Source: Actinomycetota bacterium (GTDB lineage: Bacteria; Actinomycetota; UBA4738). Taken from it: a stretch of 41,538 nucleotides of DNA. The DNA lies in NCBI GenBank assembly GCA_036721725.1, contig DAIMKN010000003.1, positions 1 to 41,538 of the forward strand, written 5' to 3'. The translations under genes were made by a program, and so were the position numbers. Shown here piece after piece: positions 1-41,538 of this stretch. Position 1 is the first letter of the stretch; each line of letters begins with the position of its first letter. Below the pieces are notes generated by a model. It ran no database searches. It was not told the DNA's origin and worked only from the letters and a program-made list of their open reading frames with translations.

Positions 1-2
1 CG

Positions 3-53
3 CCGCGCGGGACGAAGTTCTGTCCCGAATGCGGGACCTCGCTGGCGTCCTGA
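3..53 (+). CDS. 3' end of a zinc-ribbon protein gene (5' part outside window)
   Basis: Frame 3 reads PRGTKFCPECGTSLAS, then TGA at 51-53. The CPxC knuckle is typical of zinc-ribbon termini. GAGG at 79-82 could then serve ATG 91. An alternative frame running to TGA 92-94 (ATGA overlap with the next gene) cannot be excluded. Confidence 0.3.
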   Translation, partial: PRGTKFCPECGTSLAS

Positions 54-90
54 GCTTTCGCCCGGCGGCCCGCGTGGCCGAGGTCGTGCG

Positions 91-1431
91 ATGACGGTTT
101 ATCCGGGACAGGTCGCCGTCACGGAGCCCGGGGGGGTGGCCGGCGCGTTCGCGCCGGCCACCGTGGAGCCGGGAGACAAGGCCGTGACGATCCTGGTCGC
201 CGGCGCCCCGCCCCTCGAGCTCCCCTACACCGACATCGACGACCTGTTCGACGACGACTACACGCTCCGGCTGACGGACTACACGGGCCGGCGCTACGAC
301 CTGTCGATGTTCGGCAAGGCCTACGGCCAGATCGCCGCGGACGTGGCCGGGCGCCGCCGGGACCGTCTCCAGCACGACCTCCTGCTGACCGGAACGGGCG
401 AGTTCGAGCCGTTCCCGGGGAGCGTGTTCGGACCGGACGGGCAGCCGGCCAAGGCCGAGCTGCGGCTGTTCGACGACCTGCTGGTGGCGATGCCCGAACG
501 CGGCCTGATGTGGGGCCTGCCGTATTCCTTCATCGACCGCGTGGAGTGGGACGCCGAGCAGTACCGCGTCCGCGTGGTGGATGACGGCGGGGTCGTGCAC
601 GAGTTCGGCTGGCTGGCCAAACGGAGCGAACAGTTCCGCGACATGCTCCAGCGCCGGCTGGACGAGCTTGCAGCACGAACGGCTCGAACGCTCGGCGCCC
701 TGCTGCCCGGGGTGGACCCGTCGGTGCTCGGCAGGCTGGCAGCCGTCATGCGGGACGGCCGGGCCGTGCAGCAGCGAACGGTCGAGGCCATCGACCCGGC
801 CATTTGGCCGCGGCTGGAGGCCTTGGTCGTGGAGAGGGAGGACCTGCGGGCCAGCTACGAGGTGCTGCGTTCGATGTCACCGCCCGGCTGGGCGGCGTTC
901 GGCGTGAAAGCGATCGACCCGAAGACGGACGACGCGGGCCCTGCTGCGGGTCCGCCGCTGGATCCGAACGCCGCCGCCGTGGCAGCGTCGAACGCCGGTG
1001 AGGCGCTCCCCGCGGATGAGCCGCCGGGCGCTCCCACCGCGCGGCTGTGGTACTTCTGCCCCCTGGCCCGGGACGGGCGGCCGCTCAACGCCGTGGCCCA
1101 GGAGATCACCTCCGAGGGGGGTCACGCCACCTACGTGTTCCGCCTGATGGAGTCCGAACGGTTCGCCGCGCTGGCCTCTGACGCGGCGGAGGCCGAGGTC
1201 GCCGCCGCCGTGGCCAGGCTCAACCGGGCCCTGCTCACCCTGAACTTCCGCCGCGAACCCATCTACACCTCCGACGAGCAGATCCAGGCGGGGCCGTTCG
1301 GCCGGTACCGCGTGGCGCTGCGCAAACTCGACTACCTGCAGTGGGCCCGGAAGGCGTTCCTGGGCCGGGCGCTGCACACCGATCCGGCCGCGTGGCGCTC
1401 CCAGCTCGACGCGGCGGTCGAACGCACGTAG
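91..1431 (+). CDS. hypothetical protein, 446 aa, no family recognised
   Basis: Long ORF with high GC3 and native hexamer usage; ATG start, TAG stop. No motif I can assign. Confidence 0.6.
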   Translation: MTVYPGQVAVTEPGGVAGAFAPATVEPGDKAVTILVAGAPPLELPYTDIDDLFDDDYTLRLTDYTGRRYDLSMFGKAYGQIAADVAGRRRDRLQHDLLLTGTGEFEPFPGSVFGPDGQPAKAELRLFDDLLVAMPERGLMWGLPYSFIDRVEWDAEQYRVRVVDDGGVVHEFGWLAKRSEQFRDMLQRRLDELAARTARTLGALLPGVDPSVLGRLAAVMRDGRAVQQRTVEAIDPAIWPRLEALVVEREDLRASYEVLRSMSPPGWAAFGVKAIDPKTDDAGPAAGPPLDPNAAAVAASNAGEALPADEPPGAPTARLWYFCPLARDGRPLNAVAQEITSEGGHATYVFRLMESERFAALASDAAEAEVAAAVARLNRALLTLNFRREPIYTSDEQIQAGPFGRYRVALRKLDYLQWARKAFLGRALHTDPAAWRSQLDAAVERT

Positions 1432-1447
1432 ATCCCGGCCGGCCGGT

Positions 1448-1714
1448 TCACTCGGCCGGAGTGGCGTCCTCCGACGTTCGATGTTCGACCTCGAGCTCGC
1501 CGGTGACGGCCGTCTCGTCCAGGCGGGGGCCACCCACCTCGTGGCCGCAGGAGTACGTCACGACCTGGCTCGTGTCGGCTTCCTGGATCCGTTCGTCGGG
1601 CACGGCCCGCGAGCTGGCGTTGAAGCTCACGTCGACGAGTGTGCCCTGGCCGCAGATCGGGCAGGACTGAGGCATTCCCGGGGTGGTCTCGTCGGGGTGT
1701 GTCATGGCGCTCAT
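1448..1714 (-). CDS. small Cys-rich (zinc-ribbon-like) hypothetical protein, 88 aa
   Basis: I trimmed the track ORF 1448..1987 to ATG 1714 (MSAMTHPDE...). It contains CPICG ... SCGH. It is divergent from the gene starting at 1753. Confidence 0.45.
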   Translation of the reverse strand: MSAMTHPDETTPGMPQSCPICGQGTLVDVSFNASSRAVPDERIQEADTSQVVTYSCGHEVGGPRLDETAVTGELEVEHRTSEDATPAE

Positions 1715-1752
1715 GCTAACGTCCCCACGCCCAGCCAGGAGAGGTGCAGGAT

Positions 1753-2358
1753 ATGGGTCGTTGGCGACGGGGGGTCCAGCTGGGGGTAGGGCTGATCCTG
1801 GGCCTAGCCCTTCTTGGCGTCGCGTTTTGGCGCGGAGCGGGGCCACCTGCGCCGCGAGCGGCCCCGGGACCCGGCGTGGGCTATCCCTTGAACCTGCCTG
1901 CGTTCCAGGGCGCGCACCCTGTGACGCTCGAAGCGGCTCGAAGCGCGATGGGCGGCAGCCTCCCGCTCCCGAACTCTGCCGATGCATCGACCGCCGACGT
2001 CCAGAGCGTCTGGCTCAATTCCAGCACGGCCGAAGTGGACATCTACTTCGGGTCCGGGGTGCGGTTGCTCGAGGAGCCAGGCTCGGGCGAGTCTCAAACC
2101 GTGATCCAGGCGGAAGACCAAGCAGCCGTGCAACAGAACGGAGGCGACTCGAAGCTCGCCACGATTGATGGGGTCACGGCTGTTGTAACCGCCCGAGATT
2201 TCTCTGGGAACGGCCAGTGTGGGACCCCGGGCGTCGACTGCATCCCCCCGCAGCAGAACCCGAGCGATGTCACCATGATCCTTAACGGATTCTCGGTCGA
2301 ACTTACCGCGGATTGGCCAGTAGATCAGTTGGTCGCGGTGGCGAACACCCTGTCATGA
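1753..2358 (+). CDS. membrane-anchored or secreted protein, possibly DUF4367/LolA-like C-terminal domain
   Basis: AGGAGAGG at 1736-1743 precedes ATG 1753. The N-terminus MGRWRRG plus a hydrophobic stretch (LGVGLILGLALLGVAF) looks like a signal anchor. The C-terminal ...VELTADWPVDQLVAVANTLS resembles DUF4367 ends, from memory only. GC and GC3 are lower than in neighbouring genes. Confidence 0.5.
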   Translation: MGRWRRGVQLGVGLILGLALLGVAFWRGAGPPAPRAAPGPGVGYPLNLPAFQGAHPVTLEAARSAMGGSLPLPNSADASTADVQSVWLNSSTAEVDIYFGSGVRLLEEPGSGESQTVIQAEDQAAVQQNGGDSKLATIDGVTAVVTARDFSGNGQCGTPGVDCIPPQQNPSDVTMILNGFSVELTADWPVDQLVAVANTLS

Positions 2359-2491
2359 AACACGAGTCCGGGAGAGGAAGCTCCCGAATGCTTGCTCTCC
2401 CGCAGGTTCGCCGAGCCAACTGGCTCGCAGAAGTCCCCGAGTGTTTGGGCGACGCGCGCCGTCCTCACCTAGCTCCTCGTTGACCGGAACG

Positions 2492-2719
2492 ATGCGTGGT
2501 CTGTACTGGTTGGCGGCTGGTGTCGTCCTAGCCACGTTTGTCATCGCGGTCCTCCTTCCACATCACTGCTACTATCCGCTCGGCCCCCCGGCCAAGCCTG
2601 GCTATTGCACGGGTGCCGGTTCGTTGCTTCGGAGCGGCATCGTTCTTGGTGGCATCATCGCTGGCGTTCTCGTCGGAGTAGGCGCGCGCTGGCTGGGACG
2701 AAAGGCGAAGCGACGATAG
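2492..2719 (+). CDS. small two-helix membrane protein, about 75 aa
   Basis: ATG 2492 (MRGLYWLAAGVVLATFVIAVLL...) with a second hydrophobic segment GIVLGGIIAGVLVGVGA and a basic tail. Atypical composition; no family assigned. Confidence 0.35.
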   Translation: MRGLYWLAAGVVLATFVIAVLLPHHCYYPLGPPAKPGYCTGAGSLLRSGIVLGGIIAGVLVGVGARWLGRKAKRR

Positions 2720-2962
2720 CGAGGAGTTCATGCTGCTCGCTCTGGCTGTCTCGTCCCGGCCTCAACCAACGCTGCTGGTATCCCGCGTCTGAAGTCGTTT
2801 GACACCGCCGAGCCGACGCGCTGCTCTGGCGGTCATGTCTGGGCAGCGGCGCGGGAAGAAGTTTGGAACAATGGGAGGCGTTCGACCTGAAGGCCCGTTC
2901 GAGCGGGCCGAACGCGGGCGCCGAGGCCACATCGATCCACCGACGGAAGGAGTGATTCGAAC

Positions 2963-3925
2963 ATGCCGGACATGGAGACCCCGCACTACGAGAAGATCGC
3001 CCGGGTCGGCTATTCGGGGAGCCTGTACATCCTGGCGTTCGACCACCGCGGGTCGTTCCAGAAGAAGATGTTCGGCATCCCCGGCACGCCGAACGCGGAG
3101 GAGTCGGCCCGGATCTCCGACGCCAAGACCCTCATCTTCGAAGGCTTCCAGGAGGCCATCGCTCAGGGCGCTCCCAGGGATGCCGCGGGCCTGCTGGTCG
3201 ACGAACAGTTCGGCGCGGAGATCGCCCGAACGGCCAAGCATGAGGGGTACCTGTTCGCGATGCCGGTGGAGAAGTCGGGGCAGGACGAGTTCGACTTCGA
3301 CTACGGCGAGGACTTCGGCACGCACATCCTGGACTTCGATCCGACGTTCTCCAAGGTCCTGGTGCGCTACAACCCCGACGGCGACCGGGAGATGAACGCG
3401 ACCCAACTGGTCAAGCTGAAGAAGCTCTCCGACTGGCTTCACGACAATGGCCGGAAGTTCCTGTTCGAGCTCCTGGTGCCGGCCGAGCCCGCCCAGCTCG
3501 AGAGCGTCGGCGGCGACGCGGGCCGCTACGACAAGGAGGTCCGTCCGGGACTCATGGTGACCGCCATCCGCGACATCCAGGCCGGCGGGGTGGAGCCCGA
3601 CATCTGGAAGATCGAGGGCATCGACACGGCCGAGGACTGCCAGAAGATCGCGGCGCAAGCGAGGTCGAACGGCCGCGACGACGTGGTCTGCGTGGTCCTG
3701 GGGCGCGGGGCGAACGACGACGCGGTGGTCAACTGGCTGCAGCAGGGTGCGAGCGTCCCGGGCTACGTGGGGTTCGCCATCGGCCGGACCATCTGGTGGG
3801 ACGCGCTGAAGGCCTACCTGGCCTCCGAGACCGACCGCAGCGCGGCGGTGAAGCAGATCGCCACGAACTTCCTTCGGATGATCGAGGTCTACACCGCCGC
3901 GTCGGGGGACCAGAACCACATCTAG
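2963..3925 (+). CDS. DUF2090 / Cgl0159-family (beta/alpha)8 aldolase-like protein
   Basis: GGAAGGAG precedes ATG 2963. The 320-aa product (YILAFDHRGSF..., VLVRYNP..., FLFELLVP..., DIWKIEG..., GFAIGRTIW) matches my recollection of the IolC C-terminal / DUF2090 class I aldolase-like family. Confidence 0.7.
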   Translation: MPDMETPHYEKIARVGYSGSLYILAFDHRGSFQKKMFGIPGTPNAEESARISDAKTLIFEGFQEAIAQGAPRDAAGLLVDEQFGAEIARTAKHEGYLFAMPVEKSGQDEFDFDYGEDFGTHILDFDPTFSKVLVRYNPDGDREMNATQLVKLKKLSDWLHDNGRKFLFELLVPAEPAQLESVGGDAGRYDKEVRPGLMVTAIRDIQAGGVEPDIWKIEGIDTAEDCQKIAAQARSNGRDDVVCVVLGRGANDDAVVNWLQQGASVPGYVGFAIGRTIWWDALKAYLASETDRSAAVKQIATNFLRMIEVYTAASGDQNHI

Positions 3926-3963
3926 AGGTCGGCGTTCGCCACGTGAAGGGAGGGAGTGAGGGG

Positions 3964-4167
3964 ATGTCCGTCATCAAGACGATCGACCTGGTCGGCGTAT
4001 CGTCGAAGTCCTGGCGCGACGCGGCCGAACAGGCGCTGGCCGAGGCGACCAAGACGCTCCGCGGCGTGGAGGGTATGGACGTCCTGGAGACCAGCGCCGT
4101 GGTCGAGGGCGACCGGATCAAGGAGTTCCACACGCACGTCAGGATCCGGTTCCGCATCGAACGCTGA
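3964..4167 (+). CDS. dodecin family flavin-binding protein, 67 aa
   Basis: GAAGGGAGGGAG precedes ATG 3964. MSVIKTIDLVGVSSKSWRDAAEQALAEATKTLRGV...FHTHVRIRFRIE follows the dodecin pattern (compare the M. tuberculosis Rv1498A-type sequence). Confidence 0.8.
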   Translation: MSVIKTIDLVGVSSKSWRDAAEQALAEATKTLRGVEGMDVLETSAVVEGDRIKEFHTHVRIRFRIER

Positions 4168-11267: not shown

Positions 11268-13271
11268 TCACACCTTGAACTCGAAGGCTCCGATGTCGCA
11301 GGCCGGGCCTTGGGGCCGGGTCACGCCCCGCTGATCCACCGGGACGAGGCATCCCACCGTCGGGATCGTATCGATGGCCGGACTCCCGGTCAGGAGCGCC
11401 AGCGTCAGCGTGGGTCCCCCGTTGTTCGCCAGTGCTCCCAGCTTCGGATCGATCTTCAGCTTGTCGGTGGGCTTGGAGGCGAACGTGCACCCGGCAGTCG
11501 TGCCGAGGAGATTGTGGCCGCCCGAAGCGATGTTCCCGGAGCAATCCGGTCCATCTCCGCCAGACTGGGCCTTGTTCAACGCCAGGATCGTTGCGCGCAG
11601 CGTGATGGTGCCGGGGCCGTCCTGGAGCAGGCCGCCGCCGTGCTGGGCGATCACGCTACCTGTGCCGCTCACGACGTTTCGGGCCACCGTTGAGTTCGTC
11701 AGCACCATCGTCTGGACGGCGGCGTCGATCCCCCCGCCGAGGATGACGCTCCCCCCGGTGGCGGGCGGCGAGTTGGAGCTGATCCCGTTGCCGGTGATGG
11801 TGGAGTTCGTAAACGAGACGGGCGAAGAGGAGGACTGGAGGTCGACCCCGCCCCCGCCACTCCAAGCCGTATTCGACCCCTGAGCACTGGCGTTGATCGT
11901 GTTCCGGCTGACCGTCGAACTCGTCATCACGAGCGCTCCGGACACGAGGATCCCCCCGCCAAGCCCCTTCGAGTTCGAGCCGCTGGAGTTCACGCTCAAC
12001 CCATCTTGGTCGAAGGTGGAGAGGCTGACCTTCACGCGCTCGCCGGTCTGGTCGAACAGCCCGCCGCCTTCGGCGAACGCGGGCGACGCCCCCGAGGCCG
12101 TGACCGTGTTCATGGAAATGGACGAGGAGGTGATGGACAGGGTACCGGCGGCGACGTCCAGGCCGCCCCCTTCCCCCACCCCCTCGTCCGAGGCGGCGGC
12201 CACGACGTGGTTGTCGACCACCTGCACCCCACTGAGCGTGGTCGAGACCGCTGAGGTCGAAAGCGCTCCGCCGACCGCGACCGCGCCGTCGCCGTCGCCC
12301 GTGGCCCATGCTCGGTTGTTCGCGAACGTGGAGTCCGAGAGGGTCACGGTTCCGGGAGCGACGCTGAGGTACACAGCCCCGCCGTAGGCCGAAGCGTCGA
12401 CACCCGAGCTCGTGGCGGTGGTCACGTTGCCGCTCGCCGTCGATCCCGTGAAGCTCACGGGGGTGCCGGAGGCTTCGGCCTCCACCGCGGCCCCGAACGC
12501 GTTCGCCGACGAGGCGGCCGAGGCGGCGGCGCGGTTCCCGTCGATGTGGCTCGAGGTGACAACGAGGGGCGCGCTCGACTCGTGCTCGATGCCGCCGCCG
12601 AACGCGTCCGCGGCGGTCCCGAAGGCGACGGGCCCTGTGGATAGGGCCGCGGCCTCGTTCGAGCTCACGGTGGAGTTCACCAGCGTGAGCGGCCCGTTGG
12701 AGAGGATCCCGCCGCCCAACGCGTACACCACGCCTTCCCCGGTGCTCGACGCCTCAGCCCGGTTGTCGACGACCGAAGAGGACCTGAGAGTGATCGATCC
12801 GCCGGTCGAGGAGATGCCTCCCCCGCTCGCGATCGTCGGGCCCATCGCCACGTTGTCCTGGACGGTGACCGATCGCAACGAGAGCGCTCCGCCGGCATGA
12901 GAGATCCCGCCGTCGTTCGGACTCGAGCCACCGGTGATCATCAGATCGATCAAGTGGACCGTTGGCGTACCCGAGATCGTGAGGGTCGACCCCAGGCCTT
13001 AACCGTCGAGCGTCGCCGTGGTCGACCCCTGGAGCGTGAGGTCCTTGTCGATGGTGAAGTTCCCAGAGCACCTGCCCTCGACGGACAGCGTGCTCCCAGG
13101 GGTCGCAGCGGTGATCTTCGCCTGGAGGTCTTGGCTCGAGCAGTTCACCTTGATGGTGGCGGCAGCCGCGGGCGAAGCCCATACAGCCAATGCGGCCACG
13201 AGGGTGGCCGAAACGAAGGATGCTCCCCTCCGCCGAGATCGCGACCCGGGGCTCACGGTGTGCTGACTCAC
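11268..13271 (-). pseudogene. secreted right-handed beta-helix (Pmp-repeat) protein with a choice-of-anchor-Q-like C-terminus, interrupted by one in-frame TAA
   Basis: GGGAGGAGAG precedes GTG 13271. The signal peptide is SRRRGASFVSATLVAALAVWASPAAA. Many GGGI/GGAL beta-helix repeats are present. The C-terminus is ...GGHNLLG...DPKLGALANNGGPTLTLAL..GSPAID...DQRGVTRPQGPACDIGAFE. Track ORFs 12999..13376 and 11268..12953 are in the same frame and are separated only by TAA (12999-13001): ...TTATLDG*GLGSTLTISG... Confidence 0.7.
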
Positions 13272-13452
13272 GCTCTCCTCCCGTCGGCTGTCGGTGCCAT
13301 CTTGCCAAACGCATGTGGGTCTGTAAAGACGTGACGGTCGGGACCGCTCGATTCCCATTGTTTCGAGTCTTAGCAATCGCCGAGCGATGCCCGAGCATCC
13401 CTCCGGGTCCTGCCGGCTGTGGTTGCCCTGGATAGTCCCGTTCGCGGCAGTC

Positions 13453-14293
13453 TCAGCGCTTGGTGGCGCGGAGGCCGAACAACACGGGGAGGTCCTGCCC
13501 GCCCACGGGCAGCCGGTAGCGACCGTCGGCGTCTTTCGCCAGGACGCCCCCTCTCGGATCGAACGCGTCGTCCATCCATTCGGTCAGGGCGTCCATGCGC
13601 AGGCCGGCGTTCGACGCGGCGGTGACGATCTCCCCGAGACGATGGGGTTACTGCACGGTTGCGTTGGCCGTGGTCGGGGCGTCCATGTCGGCGTAGGACC
13701 CCGGCGAGTCGAACCGCAGCGGTTCGGCCCCCTGGTAGGGGAAGTCCAGCACGAGCGGATCCACCGAGTCGAACATCACGTACAGCGGGTGCAGGTCGAT
13801 CAGCACCAGCTTCCCGCCCGGCCGGAGCGCCGCGGCCGCCGAACGCATCCACGCCCCGAGGTCGCCGATCCAGCAGAGCACCCCGTACGACGCGAACGCC
13901 ACGTCGAACCGCCCGGCCAACTCCGCAGGGAGGGCCTGCGAGTCGCCCCCCACGAACTCCGCCGCCAGCCCCGTTCGCTCGGCCAGGCGGCGGGCGCGTT
14001 CGATGGCAACCCTCGAGAAGTCCACCCCGACCACGCGCGCCCCGAGACGCCCCCACGACAGCGTGTCCATGCCGAAGTGGCACTGGATGTGGAGCAGGTC
14101 GAGCCCTTCCACCGAACCGATGGCGGCCGCCATCTCGCTCAGCTCGCGTTCGTGTAGGGAGGAATCGCCGTCCAGGAAGCCCGGCCACGTCGTAGTACTT
14201 ATCGGCGGCGTCTCCCGGTCCGTGGAGGGTCGCGAGTTCGTCCCACCGCAGCCGGTTCAGGGCGAGCGCATCCAGTTCGTCGGAGGAGGTCAT
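13453..14293 (-). pseudogene. class I SAM-dependent methyltransferase, disrupted by a frameshift and an in-frame TAA
   Basis: The N-terminus (MTSSDELDALALNRLRWDE...KYYDVAG) is in one frame. The core (FLDGDSSLHERELSEMAAAIGSVEGLDLLHIQCHFGMDTLSW...VGVDFS...LRPGGKLVL) is in another. The switch is at the CCC run at 14180-14182. The core then reads ...NATVQ*PHRLGEIVTAASNAGLRMDAL... through TAA at 13648-13650 to TGA at 13453-13455. Confidence 0.7.
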
Positions 14294-14873: not shown

Positions 14874-16151
14874 GTGCCGCTCTCGATCCTGGTGGGAACC
14901 CAGTGGGGCGACGAGGGCAAGGGGAAAGCCACCGACCTCCTGTCCGCCCGCAGTGACTTCGTCGTCCGCTATCAGGGCGGCAACAATGCCGGCCACACGG
15001 TCTCGGTCGGCGGGCAGCTCTTCAAGCTCCACCTCATCCCCTCCGGCGTCCTGTATCCGCACGTCACCCCCGTCATCGCCGATGGCGTGGTGGTCGATCC
15101 GAACGTCCTGCTGGCGGAGATGGACGCGCTGGCCAAGCGAGGCGTCGATCCCTCGCGGCTGAAGCTCAGCGGCAACGCCCACCTCATCCTGCCCTACCAC
15201 CTGGAGCTCGACAAGCTGACCGAACGCTACCTGGGCAAGCACGCCCTGGGCACGACCAAGCGCGGCATCGGCCCGGCCTACGCGGACAAGGCCTCGCGCA
15301 TCGGCCTGCGGGTCCAGGACCTCACCGACCCCCGGATCTTCCGCGAGAAGCTCGACGTGGTCCTCAAGGAGAAGAACCTCCTGCTGACCAAGGTCTACAA
15401 CCGCCTCCCCATGAAGGCCGAGGAGATCGCCGAACAGTACCTGGCCATGGGCGCGCGCCTCGCGCCCCACATCACCGACACCAGCGGGATGCTGTGGCGG
15501 GCGCTCCGCGACGGCAAGCGCGTGATGCTGGAGGGCGCCCAGGGAACGCTGCTCGACATCGACCACGGGACGTATCCGTTCGTCACGTCGTCCTCGCCCG
15601 TGGCGGGAGGGGCGCTCGCCGGGAGCGGGCTGGGACCGAAGGAGGTGGACGCGGTCATCGGCGTGGCCAAGGCCTACGTGACCCGCGTCGGATCCGGGCC
15701 GTTCCCCACCGAGGATCTGGGGCCGGCCGGGGCGCACCTCGGCGACGTGGGGCAGGAGTTCGGCACGACCACGGGACGGGCCCGGCGGTGCGGGTGGTTC
15801 GACGCGGTGCTGCTGCGCTATGCGGCGCGGGTGAACGGCCTGACCGAACTGTTCGTGACGAAGCTGGATGTGCTAAGCGGCTTGGAGGAGATCAAGGTGT
15901 GCACGGCGTACCGCTACGAAGGGCAGCGGTACGAGGACTTCCCGCCCCACCAGTCGATCTTCCACAAGGCAGAGGCGATCTACGAGGAGGTCGAAGGCTG
16001 GACGGAGGACCTCACCGGCGTCACGCGGTTCGAGGACCTCCCCCCCGCGGCGGCAAAGTACGTCCGGCGGGTGGGCGACCTGGCGGGGGTGCCCGTTCGG
16101 CATCTCTCCATCGGGCCGGCCCGGGAACAGACGCTCACGGTGGAGGACTGA
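14874..16151 (+). CDS. purA: adenylosuccinate synthase
   Basis: N-terminal GTQWGDEGKGK P-loop, GGNNAGHTV, TKRGIGPAY, GTTTGRxRRCGW. Confidence 0.95.
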   Translation: MPLSILVGTQWGDEGKGKATDLLSARSDFVVRYQGGNNAGHTVSVGGQLFKLHLIPSGVLYPHVTPVIADGVVVDPNVLLAEMDALAKRGVDPSRLKLSGNAHLILPYHLELDKLTERYLGKHALGTTKRGIGPAYADKASRIGLRVQDLTDPRIFREKLDVVLKEKNLLLTKVYNRLPMKAEEIAEQYLAMGARLAPHITDTSGMLWRALRDGKRVMLEGAQGTLLDIDHGTYPFVTSSSPVAGGALAGSGLGPKEVDAVIGVAKAYVTRVGSGPFPTEDLGPAGAHLGDVGQEFGTTTGRARRCGWFDAVLLRYAARVNGLTELFVTKLDVLSGLEEIKVCTAYRYEGQRYEDFPPHQSIFHKAEAIYEEVEGWTEDLTGVTRFEDLPPAAAKYVRRVGDLAGVPVRHLSIGPAREQTLTVED

Positions 16152-17967: not shown

Positions 17968-19283
17968 TCCCTCGCTACACATTGCCTGAGATGGCCGCGG
18001 TGTGGTCCGAGGAGTCGAAGCTGGCCGCCTGGCTCCGCATCGAGATCCTGGCGTGCGAAGCGTGGTCCCGCCTGGGTCACATCCCGTCGGAGGACATGGC
18101 GCAGATCAAGGAGCGAGCGGTCGCTCCCACGCCGGAGCGGGTGGCCGAACTGGAGGCGGTGACCCACCACGACGTGGCGGCGTTCGTCCAGGCGGCGGCC
18201 GAACCCATCGGGGAGGCCGGACGGTGGATCCACTTCGGCCTGACGTCGTCGGACGTGCTGGATACCGCGCTGGCATTGCAGTTGCGCGAGGCCGGTGACC
18301 TGCTCTTGGCCAAGCTCGAACACCTGTTGGCCGTGGTGAAGCGGCGGGCGCTGGAGCATCGCGACACCTTGTGCATCGCTCGAACGCACGGCGTCCACGC
18401 CGAACCGACCACGTTCGGCCACAAGTTCGCGTTGTGGGCGTTCGAGCTGGACCGCGACCGGTCGCGGCTGCGGACGGCGCGGGAAGCGGTGAGCGTGGGG
18501 AAGCTGTCGGGCGTGGTCGGGACGTACTCGCAGATCGACCCGTCGGTGGAGGAATACGTCTGCGCCGCACTGGGATTGCGCCCGGCGGAGGCCGCGTCGC
18601 AGGTGGTGCAGCGCGACGTTCACGCCGAGTTCATGTGGGCCCTGGCCATCACAGCGGCGACGCTGGAGAAGATCGCGCTGGAGGTCCGCCACCTGGCTCG
18701 AACGGAGGTCCGGGAGGTAGAGGAGCCGTTCGGCCCGGGACAGAAGGGTTCGAGCGCCATGCCCCACAAGCGCAACCCCGTTCTGTCCGAACGCATCTGC
18801 GGCCTGGCCCGCGTCATCCGGGCGAACCTCCAGCCGGCGCTGGAGGACGTGGCGCTGTGGCACGAACGCGACATCTCCCATTCCAGCGTCGAACGCGTCA
18901 TCCTCCCCGACTCCACACTGGCCCTCGACTTCCTGCTGCACGACACGGCTCGGTTGCTGGACGGTCTGCGCGTCTTCCCCGACCGGATGTGGTCGAACAT
19001 GGAGAGCACCGGCGGGTTGTTCTTCTCCCAGAAGGTGCTGCTGGCGTTGATCGACGCCGGCCTGTCCCGGGACGACGCCTACGCCATCGTCCAGCGCGCC
19101 GCAGCCGAGACGTGGGAACGCGGCGCGCACTTCAAGGAAGCCGTGTGGTCCGAACTCTCCTCGAAGGCCTCGCCACCACTGTCGAAGGAGGCGTTCGACG
19201 CGCTGTTCAAAGTGAAGCCCTTCGTCGAACACCTCGACGGCGTGTTCGCCCGTGTCGAGAAGCTGGAGGTGGCCGAACCGTGA
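17964..19283 (+). CDS. purB: adenylosuccinate lyase
   Basis: GTGA overlap with purE. Fumarate-lyase signature GSSAMPHKRNP, plus THHDV and LTSSDVLDT. Confidence 0.95.
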   Translation: MIPRYTLPEMAAVWSEESKLAAWLRIEILACEAWSRLGHIPSEDMAQIKERAVAPTPERVAELEAVTHHDVAAFVQAAAEPIGEAGRWIHFGLTSSDVLDTALALQLREAGDLLLAKLEHLLAVVKRRALEHRDTLCIARTHGVHAEPTTFGHKFALWAFELDRDRSRLRTAREAVSVGKLSGVVGTYSQIDPSVEEYVCAALGLRPAEAASQVVQRDVHAEFMWALAITAATLEKIALEVRHLARTEVREVEEPFGPGQKGSSAMPHKRNPVLSERICGLARVIRANLQPALEDVALWHERDISHSSVERVILPDSTLALDFLLHDTARLLDGLRVFPDRMWSNMESTGGLFFSQKVLLALIDAGLSRDDAYAIVQRAAAETWERGAHFKEAVWSELSSKASPPLSKEAFDALFKVKPFVEHLDGVFARVEKLEVAEP

Positions 19284-20182
19284 CGACCCCGATGGCCGAG
19301 TTGCACGCGCAGGGGAAGGTCCGCGACATCTACGAGGCGGGGGACGACCTGCTGCTGGTCGCCACCGATCGCATCTCGGCGTTCGACGTGGTGCTGCCGA
19401 CGCCGATCCCGGACAAGGGCCGGGTGCTGACCGGGGTATCGCTGCACTGGTTCGAACTCACCAAGAATCTCGTGGCGAACCACCTCCTCACCGCCGACGT
19501 GTCCGAGTATCCGGCGGCGTTCGCCGATCGTTCGGAGGAGCTGGCGGGGCGTTCGATGCTCGTCAAGCGCGCCCAGGTCGTGCCGATGGAGTGCGTGGCC
19601 CGCGGCTACATCACGGGCAGCGGGTGGAAGGACTACCAGCGCTCCGGCCAGGTGTGCGGCATCCGGCTCCCCGAAGGGCTGCGGGAGTCCGAACGCCTCC
19701 CCGAGCCGATCTTCACCCCGACCACCAAGGCCACCGCCGGCCACGACCTGCCACTCACGCCGGAGGAGGCGGCCGAGCTCGTCGGCCGAGGGCTGGCCGA
19801 GCGGCTCAAGGAGCTGACGCTCTCGCTGTACGAGTTCGGGGCCGAACATGCCCGGCAGCGCGGAATCATCCTGGCGGACACCAAGTTCGAGTTCGGCTTC
19901 GCGGACGGCGAGCTCATCCTCATCGACGAGGTGCTGACGCCCGACTCGAGCCGGTTCTGGCCCGCCGATCGCTACGAGCCAGGGCACGGCCAGCCGTCGT
20001 TCGACAAGCAGTACGTCCGGGACTGGCTCGACGCGAGCGGTTGGGATCACGAACCGCCCCCACCGGAGCTCCCCACCGACGTGGTCGAACAGACCGTCAA
20101 ACGGTACCGCGAGGCGTACGAACGCATCACCGGCGAGACGTTCGACGCGTACCTCTCGCGGATGGCGGTCGCGGCGAAATGA
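19280..20182 (+). CDS. purC: SAICAR synthase
   Basis: GTGA overlap with purB. Motifs GKVRDIYE, ATDRISAFD, LADTKFEFG and DSSRFWP are present. Confidence 0.9.
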   Translation: MTTPMAELHAQGKVRDIYEAGDDLLLVATDRISAFDVVLPTPIPDKGRVLTGVSLHWFELTKNLVANHLLTADVSEYPAAFADRSEELAGRSMLVKRAQVVPMECVARGYITGSGWKDYQRSGQVCGIRLPEGLRESERLPEPIFTPTTKATAGHDLPLTPEEAAELVGRGLAERLKELTLSLYEFGAEHARQRGIILADTKFEFGFADGELILIDEVLTPDSSRFWPADRYEPGHGQPSFDKQYVRDWLDASGWDHEPPPPELPTDVVEQTVKRYREAYERITGETFDAYLSRMAVAAK

Positions 20183-20451: not shown

Positions 20452-20603
20452 GTGTCGTACCCTCTCGGTATCGTCCGGTGAGTGGACGAGGGGGTCACGA
20501 CATGGCCACGCAGCCGAAGACGCTCTACACGTACGCGGACCTCGAACGCCTCCCGCAGGACAACCTCCGCCGCGAGATCATCGACGGCGAGCTCGTCGTG
20601 ACG
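20452..20603 (+). repeat. copy 1 of a duplicated leader plus 5' coding segment shared by the two Uma2 genes
   Basis: Aligns with 21797-21949 at roughly nine of ten positions by eye. It starts a few nt after the upstream stop codon and runs through the first ~34 codons (MATQPxTLYTYADLERxPxDNLRREIIDGELxVT). Confidence 0.8.
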
Positions 20604-21074
20604 GCCGCCCCGATCCCGCGCCACCAGCGAGCGGTCGTTGAACTGACCGTCGCCTTCCATTCCTACGGGGGTCAACACGGAGGCCAGGTGTACCCCGCGC
20701 CGACGGATGTTTTCTTCAGCGACTCGAACGTGGTCGAGCCGGACGTGCTGTTCGTCGCTGCAGATCGTCTCGCCCAGGTCGAGAAGAAGTTCGTCCGATC
20801 GGCACCGACCGTCGTCGTGGAGGTGTCCTCGCCCTCCACGCGAAGGCTGGACCTGGTACGGAAGCGGGACCTCTATGAGAGGTTCGCGGTGCCGGAATAC
20901 TGGTTCGTCGACCTCGACGGGGATCGGGTCGAGGTCTACCGCCTCGACCCTGCAGGGAGGTACGGATCCCCCGTCATCCTCGATCGCGGAAACCACGTGG
21001 ACAGTCCGCTTCTCCCAGGGTTCGTGCTGCCGGTGGATCGGGTACTCGGCCCGCCCGAGGAGGAGGACGCATGA
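20502..21074 (+). CDS. Uma2 family (DUF820) PD-(D/E)XK endonuclease-like protein, copy 1
   Basis: GAGGGGG precedes ATG 20502. The pattern ...ELIDGEL..., PDV.FV, E.SP.....D...K...Y...GV.EYW.VD is typical of Uma2. Its stop overlaps the purQ start (ATGA at 21071-21074). Confidence 0.85.
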   Translation: MATQPKTLYTYADLERLPQDNLRREIIDGELVVTAAPIPRHQRAVVELTVAFHSYGGQHGGQVYPAPTDVFFSDSNVVEPDVLFVAADRLAQVEKKFVRSAPTVVVEVSSPSTRRLDLVRKRDLYERFAVPEYWFVDLDGDRVEVYRLDPAGRYGSPVILDRGNHVDSPLLPGFVLPVDRVLGPPEEEDA

Positions 21075-21796: not shown

Positions 21797-21949
21797 GTGT
21801 CGTAAACCTCTCGGTATCCTCCGGTGAGTGGACGAGGGGGTCACAAGATGGCGACGCAGCCGCAGACGCTCTACACCTACGCCGACCTCGAACGGTTCCC
21901 GGAGGACAACCTCCGCCGGGAGATCATCGACGGCGAGCTCATCGTGACG
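21797..21949 (+). repeat. copy 2 of the duplicated Uma2 leader plus 5' coding segment
   Basis: See 20452-20603. It begins 7 nt after the purQ stop codon. Confidence 0.8.
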
Positions 21950-22413
21950 CCTTCGCCGGTCACGCGCCACCAGGACGCGGTCATGACCCTCGGCGGCGAG
22001 CTGTACCAGTACGTCAAGGCCCACGGCGGCAAGGTCTACCCCGCCCCACTGGACGTCTTCTTCTCGGATCACGACGTGGTGAAGCGGACGTGCTGTTCGT
22101 TCGGCCCGAGCACCTCGAACGCGTGGAACGGAAGTTCGTCAGGGCCGCCCCCGATGTCGTGATCGAGGTGTGCGCACCCTCCACCCTCAGGCTGGATCTG
22201 GTCCGCAAGCGGGAGCTGTACGAACGGTTCGGCGTGCCCGGGTACTGGTTCGTCGACCTCGACGCCGACCGGCTGGAGGTGTACCGGCTGGACGAACAGG
22301 CCCGTTACGGCCCGCCCCGGCTGTGGGCTCGAGCGGAAACCTTCGAAAGCCTCGAGGTCCCCGGATTCCGGTTGGCGGTGGACGACATCCTGGGTCCGGC
22401 GGACGAGGACTGA
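21848..22413 (+). pseudogene. Uma2 family endonuclease-like gene, copy 2, with a 1-nt frameshift
   Basis: Track ORFs 21824..22162 and 22090..22413 together make one Uma2 protein. Compared with copy 1 (GTGGTCGAGCCGGACGTGCTG), copy 2 reads GTGGTGAAGCGGACGTGCTG and lacks one C near 22085/22086. This switches frame before the conserved PDVLFV motif. Confidence 0.75.
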
Positions 22414-37894: not shown

Positions 37895-38209
37895 GCAAGC
37901 GTCCCAAGTGCCACCTCTCCGGACCACAACACACATCATTCGCTCCGGCTCGGGGAAGAACTCGCCCATCCTTCAGGCAACCTCTCGATGCGCTCACTGG
38001 GGCGTCGAATCGTACCTTCCGGCCAGGACCTCCCGGATCTGCTCCCCTGATCTGCCAGCCATGGTGGCAGAGATGGGTTCTTGCTTGCCTTCCTAGTTCG
38101 AAGTGGGGATGGAAAAATGGCCCGTGTTGCCTATATCACCGACTGGCGGAGTAGGTGACAATTCGCCAGAATCGCGTGGATGACCCACCGTGAGCCAGGG
38201 GAGGTACGC

Positions 38210-38410
38210 ATGAACAGAACGCAGGGAGAGGGCGAGAAGCTCCTCACGCCTGCCGAGGTCGCCGCGATGTTTCGGGTCGACCCGAAGACCGTGACCCGGT
38301 GGGCGAAGTCAGGGAAGCTGTCCTCGATCCGGACGCTCGGCGGTCACCGCCGGTATCGCGAGGCGGAGATCCGCGGCCTGTTGGATGAATCGACGAGCGG
38401 CAAGCTCTGA
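38210..38410 (+). CDS. bldC: BldC-type MerR/excisionase-like small DNA-binding regulator
   Basis: GGGGAGG precedes ATG 38210. LLTPAEVAAMFRVDPKTVTRWAKSGKLSSIRTLGGHRRYREAEIRGLL is nearly the BldC consensus. Confidence 0.85.
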   Translation: MNRTQGEGEKLLTPAEVAAMFRVDPKTVTRWAKSGKLSSIRTLGGHRRYREAEIRGLLDESTSGKL

Positions 38411-38443
38411 GTTCGCCCGCTCCACCCCATATCGACGACCTGG

Positions 38444-38480
38444 AGACCGCGAGCGCCGCACGACGCGCCGCGGTCTTTCG
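38444..38480 (+). terminator. intrinsic-terminator-like hairpin after bldC
   Basis: AGACCGCG (38444-38451) pairs perfectly with CGCGGTCT (38469-38476). Further GC pairs form inside the loop. The hairpin is followed by TTTCGG. Confidence 0.45.
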
Positions 38481-38515
38481 GTGTGTGCGATGCGCGAACG
38501 GATGGCCTTCAGGAG

Positions 38516-38588
38516 TGGCGAGGGGCAGAATCGAACTGCCGACACCGCGGTTTTCAGCCGCGTGCTCTGCCAACTGAGCTACCTCGCC
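38516..38588 (-). tRNA. tRNA-Phe (GAA)
   Basis: The reverse complement GGCGAGGTAGCTCAGTTGGCAGAGCACGCGGCTGAAAACCGCGGTGTCGGCAGTTCGATTCTGCCCCTCGCCA folds as a cloverleaf. The anticodon loop is CTGAAAA. CCA is not encoded. Confidence 0.9.
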
Positions 38589-38645
38589 GCGCGTTCACGT
38601 TCGCACCTGTTCGCGAAGCCGCGCGCGAACCGGGCCGAGCGTCTC

Positions 38646-38721
38646 GCGGTCCCGACCGGATTTGAACCGGCGATCTCCGCCTTGACAGGGCGGCGTGTTA
38701 AGCCTGACTACACCACGGGAC
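38646..38721 (-). tRNA. tRNA-Asp (GTC)
   Basis: The reverse complement GGTCCCGTGGTGTAGTCAGGCTTAACACGCCGCCCTGTCAAGGCGGAGATCGCCGGTTCAAATCCGGTCGGGACCG has anticodon loop CTGTCAA. Confidence 0.9.
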
Positions 38722-38735
38722 CATATGCGGTTTTC

Positions 38736-38808
38736 GTGCCCCCAGCGGAGTTCGAATCCGCGTTACCGGCTTGAAAGGCCGGCGTCCTAGGCCACTAGAC
38801 GATGGGGG
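38736..38808 (-). tRNA. tRNA-Glu (TTC)
   Basis: The reverse complement GCCCCCATCGTCTAGTGGCCTAGGACGCCGGCCTTTCAAGCCGGTAACGCGGATTCGAACTCCGCTGGGGGCA has anticodon loop CTTTCAA. Confidence 0.9.
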
Positions 38809-38875
38809 CGAACGTCAACCCCGCCCAAGGGCAGCCGAGGGATTATACCGCCGGGGCTTCGCCTGCCCGGCGGCG

Positions 38876-38905
38876 TTGGTGAAGCGAGGCAAGCTCCGGT
38901 AGGCT
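38876..38905 (+). promoter_or_regulatory. candidate promoter TTGGTG-N18-TAGGCT upstream of the CADD/PqqC-like gene
   Basis: The -35-like hexamer is at 38876-38881 and the -10-like TANNNT at 38900-38905. The gene itself has an SD (CAGGAGGGAAG) before ATG 38945. Confidence 0.3.
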
Positions 38906-38944
38906 CCTGGCACGCGTCCGAACTCGAACAGGAGGGAAGCAGCC

Positions 38945-39622
38945 ATGGTGCAGCCGAACGGTGTCGTGTCGATCATCGACGAGTTGATCCGGGATCGAAG
39001 CCTCCTGAAGCACCCGTTCTACCGGCGCTGGACCGCCGGGACGCTCTCGGCCGACGAGCTTCGTGACTACACGGGCCAGTACTACGCGTTCGAATCGGCG
39101 CTCCCTCAGGTGCTCTCGGTGCTGCTGTCGCGAACGACGCAGCCCGAACACCGCCAGGCCATCCTGGAGAACCTGTGGGACGAGGAGCACGGCGCGGACA
39201 ACCATGCCGAGCTGTGGCTTCGCTTCGCCGACGGCCTGGGGATGGACCGCACCTCTGTGACCGGAGCCGAGCTGAACCCGTCCACCCGCGACCTGGTGGA
39301 TTCCTACCGCGAGACGGCCCAGGACGCGCCGGTCTCGGCTGGCATCGCGGCGCTCTACGCCTACGAGTCGCAGCTTCCGGAGGTCGCCACGGTCAAGCTC
39401 GCCGGGCTGGACCCCTACGGCGTGCCCGAGGAGTCCCGAACGTTCTTCAAGGTCCATGCCCACCTCGACCTCGAACACTCCGCCGCCGAGCGCCGCATCA
39501 TCGAGGACGCCGAACCCGACGAACACGAGGCGGCCATCGCGGCGGCCGTTCGAAGCCTCGACGCCTGGTGGTCGTTCCTGGACGCCGTCGACTCTCTCAG
39601 CGAGCGTTCCTCGAGGGCGTGA
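38945..39622 (+). CDS. heme-oxygenase-like di-iron oxidase family protein (CADD / PqqC / TenA-like fold)
   Basis: 225 aa. Motifs HPFYRRW..G.L....L..Y..QYY.FE, NLWDEE.G...H.ELW..FA..LG and YAYESQ.PEV...K match the 'iron-containing redox enzyme' / CADD family as I recall it. Confidence 0.7.
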   Translation: MVQPNGVVSIIDELIRDRSLLKHPFYRRWTAGTLSADELRDYTGQYYAFESALPQVLSVLLSRTTQPEHRQAILENLWDEEHGADNHAELWLRFADGLGMDRTSVTGAELNPSTRDLVDSYRETAQDAPVSAGIAALYAYESQLPEVATVKLAGLDPYGVPEESRTFFKVHAHLDLEHSAAERRIIEDAEPDEHEAAIAAAVRSLDAWWSFLDAVDSLSERSSRA

Positions 39623-39647
39623 CGCTCAGCGGTGTGAAGGGTTGCGG

Positions 39648-39719
39648 TGGGCCGTGAAGGGATCGAACCTTCGACACGAGGGTTAAAAGCCCCCTGCTCT
39701 GCCACTGAGCTAACGGCCC
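39648..39719 (-). tRNA. tRNA-Lys (TTT)
   Basis: The reverse complement GGGCCGTTAGCTCAGTGGCAGAGCAGGGGGCTTTTAACCCTCGTGTCGAAGGTTCGATCCCTTCACGGCCCA has anticodon loop CTTTTAA. Confidence 0.9.
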
Positions 39720-39748
39720 TTCCGGGCGCCAGTATCTCTCAGCTGTCG

Positions 39749-41476
39749 CTACGGCTCACGGGTGGAGGCGGGTCCCTCTGCCGCCATCGGCGGCGCACTC
39801 CGCCGGTAGCCGTTCGTGATGGGCAGGCGGCGGTCCCTGCCAAACGCCTTCGGGGTGATCTTGACGCCGGGCGGGGCCTGACGGCGCTTGTACTCGGCGC
39901 GGTCGACCATGCCGGCCACCTTCCATACCAGGGCTGGGTCGGCGCCGCCGGCGATGAGGTCCTCCGGCGAACGGTCCTCCTCCACGTAGTCCTCGATGAC
40001 CGCATCCAGTTCGTCGTACGGCGGGAGCGAGTCCTGGTCGGTCTGGCCGGGACGGAGTTCGGCGCTGGGCGGCTTGGTCAGGACGTGCTCGGGGATAGGT
40101 GGGCGTTCGGCGCGGTGTTCGGCGTCCTGGTTCCGCCACCGGCAGATCTCGTAGACGAGCGTCTTGGGGACGTCCTTGATGGGGGCGAAGCCGCCGGCCA
40201 GGTCGCCGTACAACGTTGAATACCCCACGGCCATCTCGCTCTTGTTGCCGGTCGCCAGCACCAGCGAGCCGAACTTGTTCGACATCGCCATCAGCAGGTT
40301 GCCGCGGATGCGCGCCTGGAGGTTCTCCTCGGCCACGTCCTCCTGCGTGCCGGCGAACACCTCTTGCAGCGCGTCGCGGTAGGCGGTGAACACGGCGTCG
40401 ATGCGGATGGTGTCGAGTCGAACGCCGAGGCGCTCGGCCACGTCGGCGGCGTCGGTCAGGCTGTGGCCCGAGGAGTACGGCGAGGGCATGGCCACGGTTC
40501 GAACCCCTTGCGGCCCAAGCGCATCCGTCGCCAGCGCCGCCACCAGCGCGGAATCCACGCCGCCGGAAAGGCCGATGACGACCTCCTTGAACCCGTTCTT
40601 CCGAACGTAGTCACCGAGGCCCAACGTCAGCGCGCGATAGACCTCCTCCGGTCCTTCCGGCCAAGGGGCGCGTTCGGATGCGGGCAACGGCGGTCGCGTG
40701 GCGGCTGCGCCGACCGACGGGCCGGGGAAGCCCTCCGGCGGCGGTGGCGTGTCGATGTCGACGATCAGCAGGTCCTCGTCGAACATCGCGGCGTGCCACA
40801 CAAGGTCTCCGTTCGGCGCGACGACCATCGAGCCGCCGTCGAACACCAGCTCGTCCTGCCCGCCGACTGCGTTGACGTAGACGATCCACGCGCCCGTCTC
40901 GGCGGCCCGGGCCTGACAGACCTTGAGACGCTCGGCGCTCTTGCGGCGGTGGTAGGGCGAGGCGTTGATGTTCGGGATGACCTGGACACGGTCGGCGGCG
41001 TAGTCCGTCCACGGCCGGCCCGGACTCCACGCGTCCTCGCACACCGTGATGCCAAGCGCGGAGGACCCCAGCCGGAGCGGACAGGCTGCATCCCCGGGCA
41101 CGAAGTAGCGCTGCTCGTCGAACACCCCGTAGTTCGGCAGCTTCACCTTGTGGTAGCGGGCTGTTACGTGGCCACCGGAGAGCAGCGCTGCTGCGTTGTG
41201 AAGGCCGCGGTCCGAACGGTCAACGAAGCCGGTCAGGATCGCGCAGCCATGGGCGGTCCGCCGAGCCAGATCGTGCAGAGCCGCCAGGTTGTCCGCGACG
41301 AACCGCGGCCGCAGCACCAGATCCTCGGGCGGGTAGCCGGTGATTGCCAGCTCCGGGAAGCACGCCAGATCCGCGCCCGCGTTGGACGCCTCCTCCGCAG
41401 CGACAACCATTCGTTCGACGTTGCCCTGGAGGTCGCCGACCGTCGTGTTGATCTGCCCCAACGCGATCCGCACCAT
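39749..41476 (-). CDS. nadE: glutamine-dependent NAD+ synthetase
   Basis: 575 aa. The N-terminal CN-hydrolase domain has FPELAITGYPPEDL and GITVCEDAW. The C-terminal ATP-pyrophosphatase domain has GLSGGVDSA. Confidence 0.95.
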   Translation of the reverse strand: MVRIALGQINTTVGDLQGNVERMVVAAEEASNAGADLACFPELAITGYPPEDLVLRPRFVADNLAALHDLARRTAHGCAILTGFVDRSDRGLHNAAALLSGGHVTARYHKVKLPNYGVFDEQRYFVPGDAACPLRLGSSALGITVCEDAWSPGRPWTDYAADRVQVIPNINASPYHRRKSAERLKVCQARAAETGAWIVYVNAVGGQDELVFDGGSMVVAPNGDLVWHAAMFDEDLLIVDIDTPPPPEGFPGPSVGAAATRPPLPASERAPWPEGPEEVYRALTLGLGDYVRKNGFKEVVIGLSGGVDSALVAALATDALGPQGVRTVAMPSPYSSGHSLTDAADVAERLGVRLDTIRIDAVFTAYRDALQEVFAGTQEDVAEENLQARIRGNLLMAMSNKFGSLVLATGNKSEMAVGYSTLYGDLAGGFAPIKDVPKTLVYEICRWRNQDAEHRAERPPIPEHVLTKPPSAELRPGQTDQDSLPPYDELDAVIEDYVEEDRSPEDLIAGGADPALVWKVAGMVDRAEYKRRQAPPGVKITPKAFGRDRRLPITNGYRRSAPPMAAEGPASTREP

Positions 41477-41482
41477 CCCACC

Positions 41483-41489
41483 TAGCGTA
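41483..41489. promoter_or_regulatory. overlapping divergent -10-like boxes: TAGCGT on the + strand (41483-41488) and TACGCT on the - strand (41484-41489)
   Basis: The minus-strand box lies 7 nt upstream of the nadE ATG (41476). The plus-strand box lies 8 nt upstream of ATG 41497. Only 20 nt separate the two start codons and neither has an SD. Confidence 0.3.
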
Positions 41490-41496
41490 GCGCTCC

Positions 41497-41538
41497 ATGG
41501 CTGCCGCGCTTCGGCGGTTCAACTCCCCTCTCCTCCAC
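41497..41538 (+). CDS. possible 5' end of a divergent gene (14 codons, runs off the window)
   Basis: ATG 41497, MAAALRRFNSPLLH..., high GC3. Too short to verify. Confidence 0.2.
   Translation, partial: MAAALRRFNSPLLH

Follow-up and report, generated by a model that had tools for sequence, protein, structure and literature searches.

Why does the word CGAACG, together with its reverse complement CGTTCG, crowd a 41,538-nucleotide stretch of DNA (contig DAIMKN010000003.1, called the window in its whole length) whose gene content is ordinary housekeeping? The window has a GC content of 68.8% and comes from an uncultured Actinomycetota bacterium that occurs in JGI metagenomes. An initial annotation had noted the hexamer in all reading frames and had likened it to the cyanobacterial highly iterated palindrome HIP1 and to uptake sequences. 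Hyper-abundant short words of these kinds are rare, and the mechanism behind HIP1 is unsettled after decades. The analysis reported here shows a directional force toward the 5-bp word CGAAC/GTTCG: it is strand-symmetric, phase-independent, dependent on the whole word, genome-wide and inherited in the lineage, and amounts to about 2-3.5 ln-odds per site.

Abundance and size of the word

The window contains 119 copies of CGAACG and 111 of CGTTCG, and the sum of 230 makes this its top hexamer. Base composition predicts 28 copies, or one per 1.5 kb as the initial annotation had estimated, and 100 dinucleotide-preserving shuffles of the window gave 54.9 ± 7.8 (maximum 78), so the strong over-representation that had been claimed is real. 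Markov models of orders 2, 3 and 4 raise the expectation to 134, 181 and 229. The earlier hand counts were also accurate (10 copies in purB, 8 in 11268-12953 and 8 in 12954-14293), except that positions 1-3000 hold 8 rather than 7 copies of CGTTCG beside the 9 of CGAACG.

Could codon usage account for the excess? Genes were called by codon statistics (38 genes, 86% of the window covered) and their 210 hexamers were compared with shuffled versions of the same genes. Permuting synonymous codons gene by gene left 68.1 ± 6.2 copies and shuffling codon order left 48 ± 6. A null that preserves both protein and dinucleotides, in which third positions are swapped among sites with the same amino acid, first two bases and following base, left 94.5 ± 6.5 (maximum 116). 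Under this last null the observed/expected ratio (O/E) is about 1.7 (1.71) for the pentamer and about 2.2-2.3 (2.26) for the hexamer, clearly not near 1.

When k-mers are ranked against the codon nulls, CGAAC comes first (219 vs 73, z = 17) and GTTCG second (240 vs 113), and every hexamer ranks lower. The actual unit is thus not the hexamer of the initial annotation but the bare 5-bp word, H-CGAAC-D. It occurs 505 times (about 12 per kb, or 12.2, which is about one copy per 82 bp), against 82 copies expected from base composition and 132 from dinucleotides; 230 of the 505 extend to CGAACG/CGTTCG. On the downstream side CGAACA is enriched 8.7-fold, CGAACG 8.1-fold and CGAACT 5.8-fold, with CGAACC less enriched (3.1-fold). 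At position -1 T is favoured and G disfavoured, and TCGAAC/GTTCGA has the highest order-1 z-score among hexamers (173 vs 28). The information in the flanks is 0.23 bits at -1 and at most 0.06 bits everywhere else. A longer extension, for which the initial annotation had proposed to test, does not exist, and since the flanks are uninformative beyond ±1 the feature is neither a repeat element nor a longer signal. A longer motif, a repeat element and a dispersed repeat, including miniature inverted-repeat transposable elements and repetitive extragenic palindromes, were accordingly ruled out, the flanks being at background composition. Within the window 69% of all GAAC is CGAAC, and 27% of AA/TT dinucleotides lie inside the word, as against 7% in controls of equal GC. 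In other respects the window closely resembles controls that lack the bias, both in how much AA/TT it contains overall and in its dinucleotide signature.

Phase, strand and codon choice

All six combinations of phase and orientation are occupied (sense CGAACG 21/36/49, sense CGTTCG 17/59/28), and the five instances that had been picked out within a single gene, starting at 495, 676, 685, 775 and 965, do lie in phases 2, 0, 0, 0 and 1 (Table 1). Twenty hexamer copies stand outside called genes, and intergenic enrichment over base composition is 3.7-fold for the pentamer and 4.9-fold for the hexamer. Sense and antisense copies within genes are comparable in number (219 CGAAC vs 240 GTTCG). So are the two orientations on the + strand of the window (248 CGAAC vs 257 GTTCG, with base totals of G 14558 vs C 14036), and a strand or replichore skew, which the initial annotation had proposed to look for, is not seen in the window. 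All called genes carry the pentamer, at 8-25 per kb, and spacing is Poisson-like (coefficient of variation 0.99, Fano factor 0.8-0.9). Within the window copies keep no favoured distance from one another, whatever their relative orientation, and there is no inverted pairing at terminators and no periodic or over-even spacing. The LexA-box layout CGAAC-N4-GTTCG has 0 copies in the window (about 1.5 expected by a rough estimate), and GAAC-N4-GTTC is unremarkable. The process acts on duplex DNA, being strand-symmetric, phase-independent and active in intergenic DNA too. Because the word stands in every frame and on both strands, the bias points to a DNA-level force like those behind HIP1 or uptake sequences. 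The intergenic excess and an O/E of about 1.7-2.2 agree with the initial annotation that it is not a matter of protein or codon usage.

Is the word read base by base or as a whole? Codon choice shows the latter. In C|GAA|CG contexts 86% of glutamate codons are GAA; the share is 64% over all C|GAA|C contexts and falls to 12% where the following codon starts with a base other than C. Broken down by flank, the frequency of GAA is 0.64 when C stands on both sides, 0.18 when G precedes and C follows, 0.12 when C precedes and a base other than C follows, and 0.12 with neither flank in place. On the logit scale each flank alone contributes almost nothing, and the two together, four bases apart, contribute about +2.1 ln units. 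Since flanks at this distance act only jointly, CGAAC/GTTCG is read as a complete unit. For valine, GTT has a share of 69-70% in C|GTT|CG contexts vs 2% elsewhere. Arginine is CGA in 53-55% of cases before ACN vs 3-9% elsewhere, and CGT in 65% before TCG vs 5%. The codon ahead of AAC or TTC is NCG in 87-90% of cases, compared with about 46-48% overall or elsewhere. These preferences are narrow: CGA use is 0.55 before AC vs 0.03-0.04 before AA or AT, NCG use is 0.89 before AAC vs 0.45 before AAG, and before AC it is CGA that is raised, with GGA raised weakly and other NNA codons unchanged. The initial annotation was correct that the disfavoured codons GAA and CGA are drawn into use, but GCT, which it had also named, plays no part.

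Five independent, chemically different classes of change all shift toward the word (ln odds ratios 2.1, 2.5, 3.3, 2.6 and 3.5), among them C-to-G transversions, transitions from G to A and changes to T. Similar shifts across such classes are expected if one advantage attaches to the complete word, and nearest-neighbour mutational context would not give this. Saturation, defined as the share of protein-compatible (synonymously reachable) sites that carry CGAAC/GTTCG, is 57% in the window. Permissive sites number 68 per 1000 codons in the window vs 55-67 in other lineages, and because these figures are about equal the proteins themselves are barely affected. A process in this lineage treats the CGAAC/GTTCG duplex as a unit and pushes every protein-tolerant site toward it. 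The 57% filling is its equilibrium against pressure on GC at third codon positions (GC3), vs 13-15% in other high-GC bacteria.

Distribution, turnover and gene content

Controls were 101 loci of >64% GC around purB, mostly from Solirubrobacterales; purB was the anchor gene in all comparisons with relatives. Their order-1 O/E averages 1.12 for the pentamer (maximum 1.79; window 3.8) and 0.98 for the hexamer (maximum 1.61; window 4.2). Solirubrobacterales (about 120,000 codons) show none of the context effects and a codon-null O/E of 1.0, Rhodococcus and Nocardioides plasmids have O/E 0.9-1.5, and Thermus has 0.5-0.6. High-GC DNA in general carries about 3 CGAAC copies per kb, and a general high-GC effect is ruled out by the 101 control loci, Rhodococcus, Nocardioides and Thermus, all without the bias. 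Among genomes the closest relatives by PurB are Actinomycetota bacterium metagenome-assembled genomes (MAGs) at 66-75% identity, followed at about 50-57% by Solirubrobacterales and other phyla. Among relatives whose PurB is 61-78% identical, CGAAC heads the pentamers in L005, the nearest, and ranks within the top seven in the others. Saturation is 0.57 in the window, 0.36 in L005, 0.23-0.31 in further relatives and 0.13-0.15 at baseline in Solirubrobacterales, Dehalococcoidia and Acidobacteriota. As the relatives are intermediate between the window and the outgroups, the bias is clade-wide and graded, and strongest in the window's organism. Related genomes thus do share it, in weaker form. No phage with a window-like signature was present among the matches listed (at least 120 loci). 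That the strength is graded (57%, 36%, about 27% and a 14% baseline) opens the cause to direct tests, through phylogenetic profiles of modification and repair genes and through maps of the methylome or of phosphorothioates. The word is also a strong binning and host-assignment signature for the clade and flags apparently foreign genes, and analyses of codon usage and selection are distorted if it is ignored.

The same pentamers are known from elsewhere: in a k-mer survey CGAAC/GTTCG lead the high-frequency 5-mers by which halophilic archaea are best told apart (PMC7962313). On Haloferax volcanii pHV3 CGAAC reaches 9.4 per kb vs 12.2 per kb in the window. When dinucleotides and protein are preserved, however, the Haloferax excess is gone (O/E 1.15 for the 5-mer and 0.97 for the 6-mer), GAA use there is set by the following C alone, and most codons beginning with A or T are preferentially preceded by NCG. 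Identity with the haloarchaeal signature is therefore ruled out, the Haloferax effect being one of junction dinucleotides and not of the whole word.

Some other words also have unusual frequencies. CGCGCG is strongly depleted over the whole window (60 vs 195 by dinucleotides; 23 vs 48-59 under codon nulls), and CGCGCG/GCGCGC is the top hexamer in most Solirubrobacterales control loci. CCAGG/CCTGG stands at about twice the dinucleotide expectation in the window and relatives. A scan for restriction-site avoidance gave CTAG at 0.29 of expectation and only mild depletion of CGATCG (0.58), AGATCT and CAGCTG.

Are individual copies conserved? Where an amino-acid triplet is conserved between window and relatives, the word co-occurs with crude odds ratios of 4-13, but these were rejected as a sign of positional conservation: they are a class-mixing artefact, and bias-free Solirubrobacterales gave 8. 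When stratified by site class, co-occurrence equals independence (e.g. 143 vs 142.5 expected; z -1.0 to 1.4), in a comparison where divergence is high (about 70% amino-acid identity). It thus seems that individual sites are not conserved beyond chance and that permissive sites are filled independently.

At closer range, four contigs from four metagenome samples are 99.6-99.9% identical to the window, and NadE is encoded identically in the NCBI MAG GCA_036844605.1. Five near-identical strains differ by about 43 clustered substitutions that made or broke 0 pentamers, where 2-4 would be expected by a rough estimate, so that this comparison is underpowered. Two tracts stand out: 12 changes in 52 bp (window 15584-15635 vs L003) and 7 in 55 bp (19717-19771 vs L004). 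From this clustering, recombination patches seem likelier than point mutations; in L004 an effect of the contig end is the alternative.

DNA of this organism could be read for about 53 kb, that is, the window plus about 11 kb walked beyond both ends. Two blocks in the added sequence differ from the window genes. In L169 3-3222, just past the right end of the window, CGAAC density is 1.6-5.3 per kb, and in L171 935-2676, upstream of the left end, it is 3.6-6.8 per kb, vs 8-25 per kb in window genes; GC3 of the blocks is 0.68-0.86. They include TPR/MalT-like, SnoaL/TusA and DsrE genes and an extracytoplasmic function (ECF) sigma factor with its neighbours. Both blocks are probably recently acquired DNA, and baseline density is the pattern expected of foreign DNA only briefly exposed to the process, which makes them a useful internal control for it.

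The example genes and sites used above are listed in Table 1 with other features of the window. The 561-residue open reading frame (ORF) at 11268-12953 had been called a decayed gene; the frame is intact in the window, and a 561-residue gene is also called on L001. Two genes of the Uma2 family (PF05685, putative PD-(D/E)XK endonuclease) lie within the purine operon. They look like mobile insertions because both are missing at the same positions in relatives L005, L007 and L085-L100.

Table 1. Coordinates of example sites, genes and other features of the window
Feature	Position	Strand	Remarks
Example gene, no Pfam family	91..1431	+	21 pentamers and 12 hexamers, all three phases
Phase-2 example CCC GAA CGC	495..500	+	Rare Glu codon GAA, used because it completes C|GAA|C
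Phase-0 example CGA ACG (Arg-Thr)	676..681	+	Rare Arg codon CGA before ACN
Same phase-0 CGA ACG	685-690, 775-780	+	As 676..681
Phase-1 example CCG AAC GCC	965..970	+	NCG instead of NCC ahead of Asn
ORF, 561 aa	11268-12953	minus	Odd composition (GC1 = GC2 = 0.59, GC3 0.88); weak Pfam match, to beta-helix only
Longest pentamer-free stretch	12915..13440	none	525 bp; random placement gives 426-743 bp
Long ORF	13370-14293		No Pfam match over its whole length
Class-I S-adenosylmethionine (SAM) methyltransferase, 161 aa	13648-14133		Other reading frame inside the span 13370-14293
purB (adenylosuccinate lyase)	17991..19283	+	22 pentamers and 10 hexamers
Uma2-family gene	20502-21074		Between purS and purQ; intact, stop overlapping the purQ start
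Uma2-family gene, second copy	21797-22413		Between purQ and purL; 76% identity to the first over 505 bp of DNA; apparently frameshifted, with only the C-terminal half (22090-22413) in frame
tRNA-Phe(GAA)/tRNA-Asp(GTC)/tRNA-Glu(TTC) cluster and separate tRNA-Lys(TTT)	38515-38809, 39646-39719	minus	One pentamer copy in each of three of the four genes
Purine operon			purA, purD, purE, purB, purC, purS, purQ, purL, purF, purM
Other genes			Branched-chain 2-oxoacid dehydrogenase complex, NadE, aldehyde dehydrogenase, aminotransferases, four tRNA genes

Candidate agents and known systems

What could exert such a force? We tentatively favour, at somewhat less than an even chance, a vertically inherited, sequence-specific DNA modification and/or short-patch repair system that targets CGAAC. 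With such an agent the excess might be upheld by weak selection for site density, by biased correction toward the cognate word, a route suggested for HIP1 and its methyltransferases (PMC4390886), or by shielding of that word from mutation. Of the concrete leads the foremost, though not a finding, would be Dnd-type phosphorothioation of the DNA backbone at CGAAC/GTTCG. The core Dnd target is GAAC/GTTC, and genome-wide mapping in vivo showed a preference for M at -1 of GAAC and K at +1 of GTTC among the modified sites, described as 'possibly 5 bp target recognition' (PMC9521924). CGAAC/GTTCG has this pattern, which is a resemblance of sequence only, and phosphorothioation, or any single named agent, is much less certain than modification or repair in general. 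A bolder proposal, and an unlikely one, is that the clade has evolved a HIP1- or uptake-like 5-bp word as the target of a core, vertically inherited modification of DNA backbone or bases, or of word-directed repair, e.g. dense phosphorothioation, and that this system actively places its own site in over half of the genome's permissive positions. If true, this would be a new case, and a new motif class, of genome sculpting driven by modification or repair.

Several observations weigh against modification or repair as the agent. No DNA-acting methyltransferase and no dnd/ssp, Vsr or competence genes were found in the approximately 53 kb read, and the roughly 11 kb beyond both window ends likewise contain no modification, repair or competence genes; the sole methyltransferase, at 13648-14133, is a small class-I SAM enzyme of unassigned substrate. 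In known Dnd hosts no enrichment of the target has been reported, and dnd clusters are usually sporadic islands, whereas the CGAAC trait appears to be ancient and passed on vertically. Restriction sites, moreover, are usually avoided, and an enriched modification target is the opposite of that. Single-base variants show no clear T:G-specific (Vsr-like) signature under the synonymous-shuffle null (TGAAC 1.27, CGAAT 0.53, CAAAC 0.55; non-T variants CCAAC 0.51 and CGAAG 0.66). Finally, selection, biased repair and site-specific protection are inseparable from mutation by sequence alone.

The neutral alternative is a lineage-specific, context-dependent mutation or proofreading bias of which CGAAC is the equilibrium attractor, with no word-recognising protein. 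It would fit a bias that is genome-wide and stochastic, without positional conservation (143 vs 142.5), missing from apparently foreign genes and graded across the clade; the maximal-order Markov excess is moreover small (505 vs 415), and Haloferax attains 9.4 CGAAC per kb through dinucleotide biases alone. We nevertheless consider it improbable. The dinucleotide signature of the window is close to that of bias-free controls, the excess outlasts the dinucleotide-preserving null, the choice at each position depends in a strongly non-additive way on bases up to 3-4 nt off, and the same word would have to be favoured by five or more kinds of substitution that are chemically unrelated. A per-site benefit, as from weak direct selection for dense sites of an abundant DNA-binding protein (nucleoid or LexA-like winged-helix), would fit the uniform log-odds shift. 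TCGAAC is exactly the half-site of the actinobacterial/Gram-positive SOS box TCGAAC-N4-GTTCGA, and T is preferred at -1 (84 of 230), with TCGAAC/GTTCGA the top order-1 hexamer. But copies show no preferred spacing or pairing, the LexA-box layout has 0 copies where about 1.5 would be expected by a rough estimate, spacing is no more even than random, and no such protein is known, all of which leaves this explanation distinctly unlikely.

Another alternative is an uptake-type molecular drive, in which the competence machinery prefers CGAAC-bearing DNA and recombination spreads the word. Equal orientations, all frames, codon override and lineage specificity are classical properties of uptake signal sequences (USS) and DNA uptake sequences (DUS), but we hold this drive to be a long shot, as only 5 bp are specified with no information past ±1, any high-GC DNA with its 3 or so copies per kb would be poorly discriminated, terminators lack inverted pairs, the approximately 53 kb contain no competence genes, and natural transformation is not known for the clade. 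A Chi-like recombination hotspot, or another replication-oriented signal, has in its favour that Chi sites are over-represented and that the Chi of Bacillus subtilis is also just 5 nt; it is hardly credible given the lack of orientation skew (248 vs 257), which holds even though G exceeds C on the + strand. Equally hard to credit is a translational codon-pair bias or a dipeptide composition rich in Glu-Arg, Arg-Thr, x-Asn or x-Phe. Amino-acid order does add a little (48 under the codon-order shuffle vs 68 under the synonymous shuffle), but the excess persists with proteins fixed (210 vs 68), the word is enriched in sense and antisense, in three phases and in intergenic DNA, and potential sites per codon are as many as in bias-free lineages. 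The synonymous-shuffle and orientation tests have thus already refuted the dipeptide explanation, which the initial annotation had raised as a possible objection.

How does the word compare with known systems? HIP1 (GCGATCGC) and the alternate HIPs of cyanobacteria are likewise lineage-specific, hyper-abundant short words that occur in all frames, override codon choice and exceed codon-preserving nulls, and the analogy drawn at the outset holds to this extent. It fails in that HIP1 is an 8-bp palindrome, over-represented 15-300-fold, whereas CGAAC is a 5-bp non-palindrome, 2.4-3.3-fold over the synonymous-shuffle null and 6-8 times over base composition, though far denser than HIP1 (12 per kb). 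Models for HIP1 invoke cognate methyltransferases and modification-dependent repair that creates sites (PMC4390886, PMC5861425). HIP1 sites are conserved between genomes (PMC5861425), and CGAAC sites are not beyond chance. The USS of Pasteurellaceae and DUS of Neisseriaceae resemble CGAAC in their equal orientations, use of all frames and lineage specificity, and in that a directional drive without per-site function could explain them. Such sequences are 9-12 bp long, occur about once per kb and are often paired at terminators; CGAAC, by comparison, is 5 bp, occurs about once per 82 bp, is unpaired and has no extended consensus of at least 9 bp. E. coli Dcm/Vsr is alike in that repair recognising a short word can enrich that word genome-wide. 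Vsr has a modest effect confined to T:G mismatches, whereas all positions of CGAAC are affected, with no clear depletion specific to T variants. The core of the Dnd target is contained in CGAAC, whose extra base fits the M -1/K +1 preference (PMC9521924), but known hosts modify <20% of sites and enrichment is not reported. The haloarchaeal signature is the same word at high raw frequency, with the excess at the dinucleotide level there and at the level of the whole word in the window. The literature search agreed with the initial annotation that no function is described for the hexamer, and full-text searches gave no account of CGAACG or CGAAC being over-represented in bacteria. The case is an unusually clean one, the word being very short, non-palindromic and extremely dense, with a quantifiable per-site force (ln-odds +2 to +3.5). 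It belongs to a known kind, the hyper-abundant short genomic words, and differs from HIP1 and USS/DUS in its length, asymmetry, density, lack of site conservation and host phylum.

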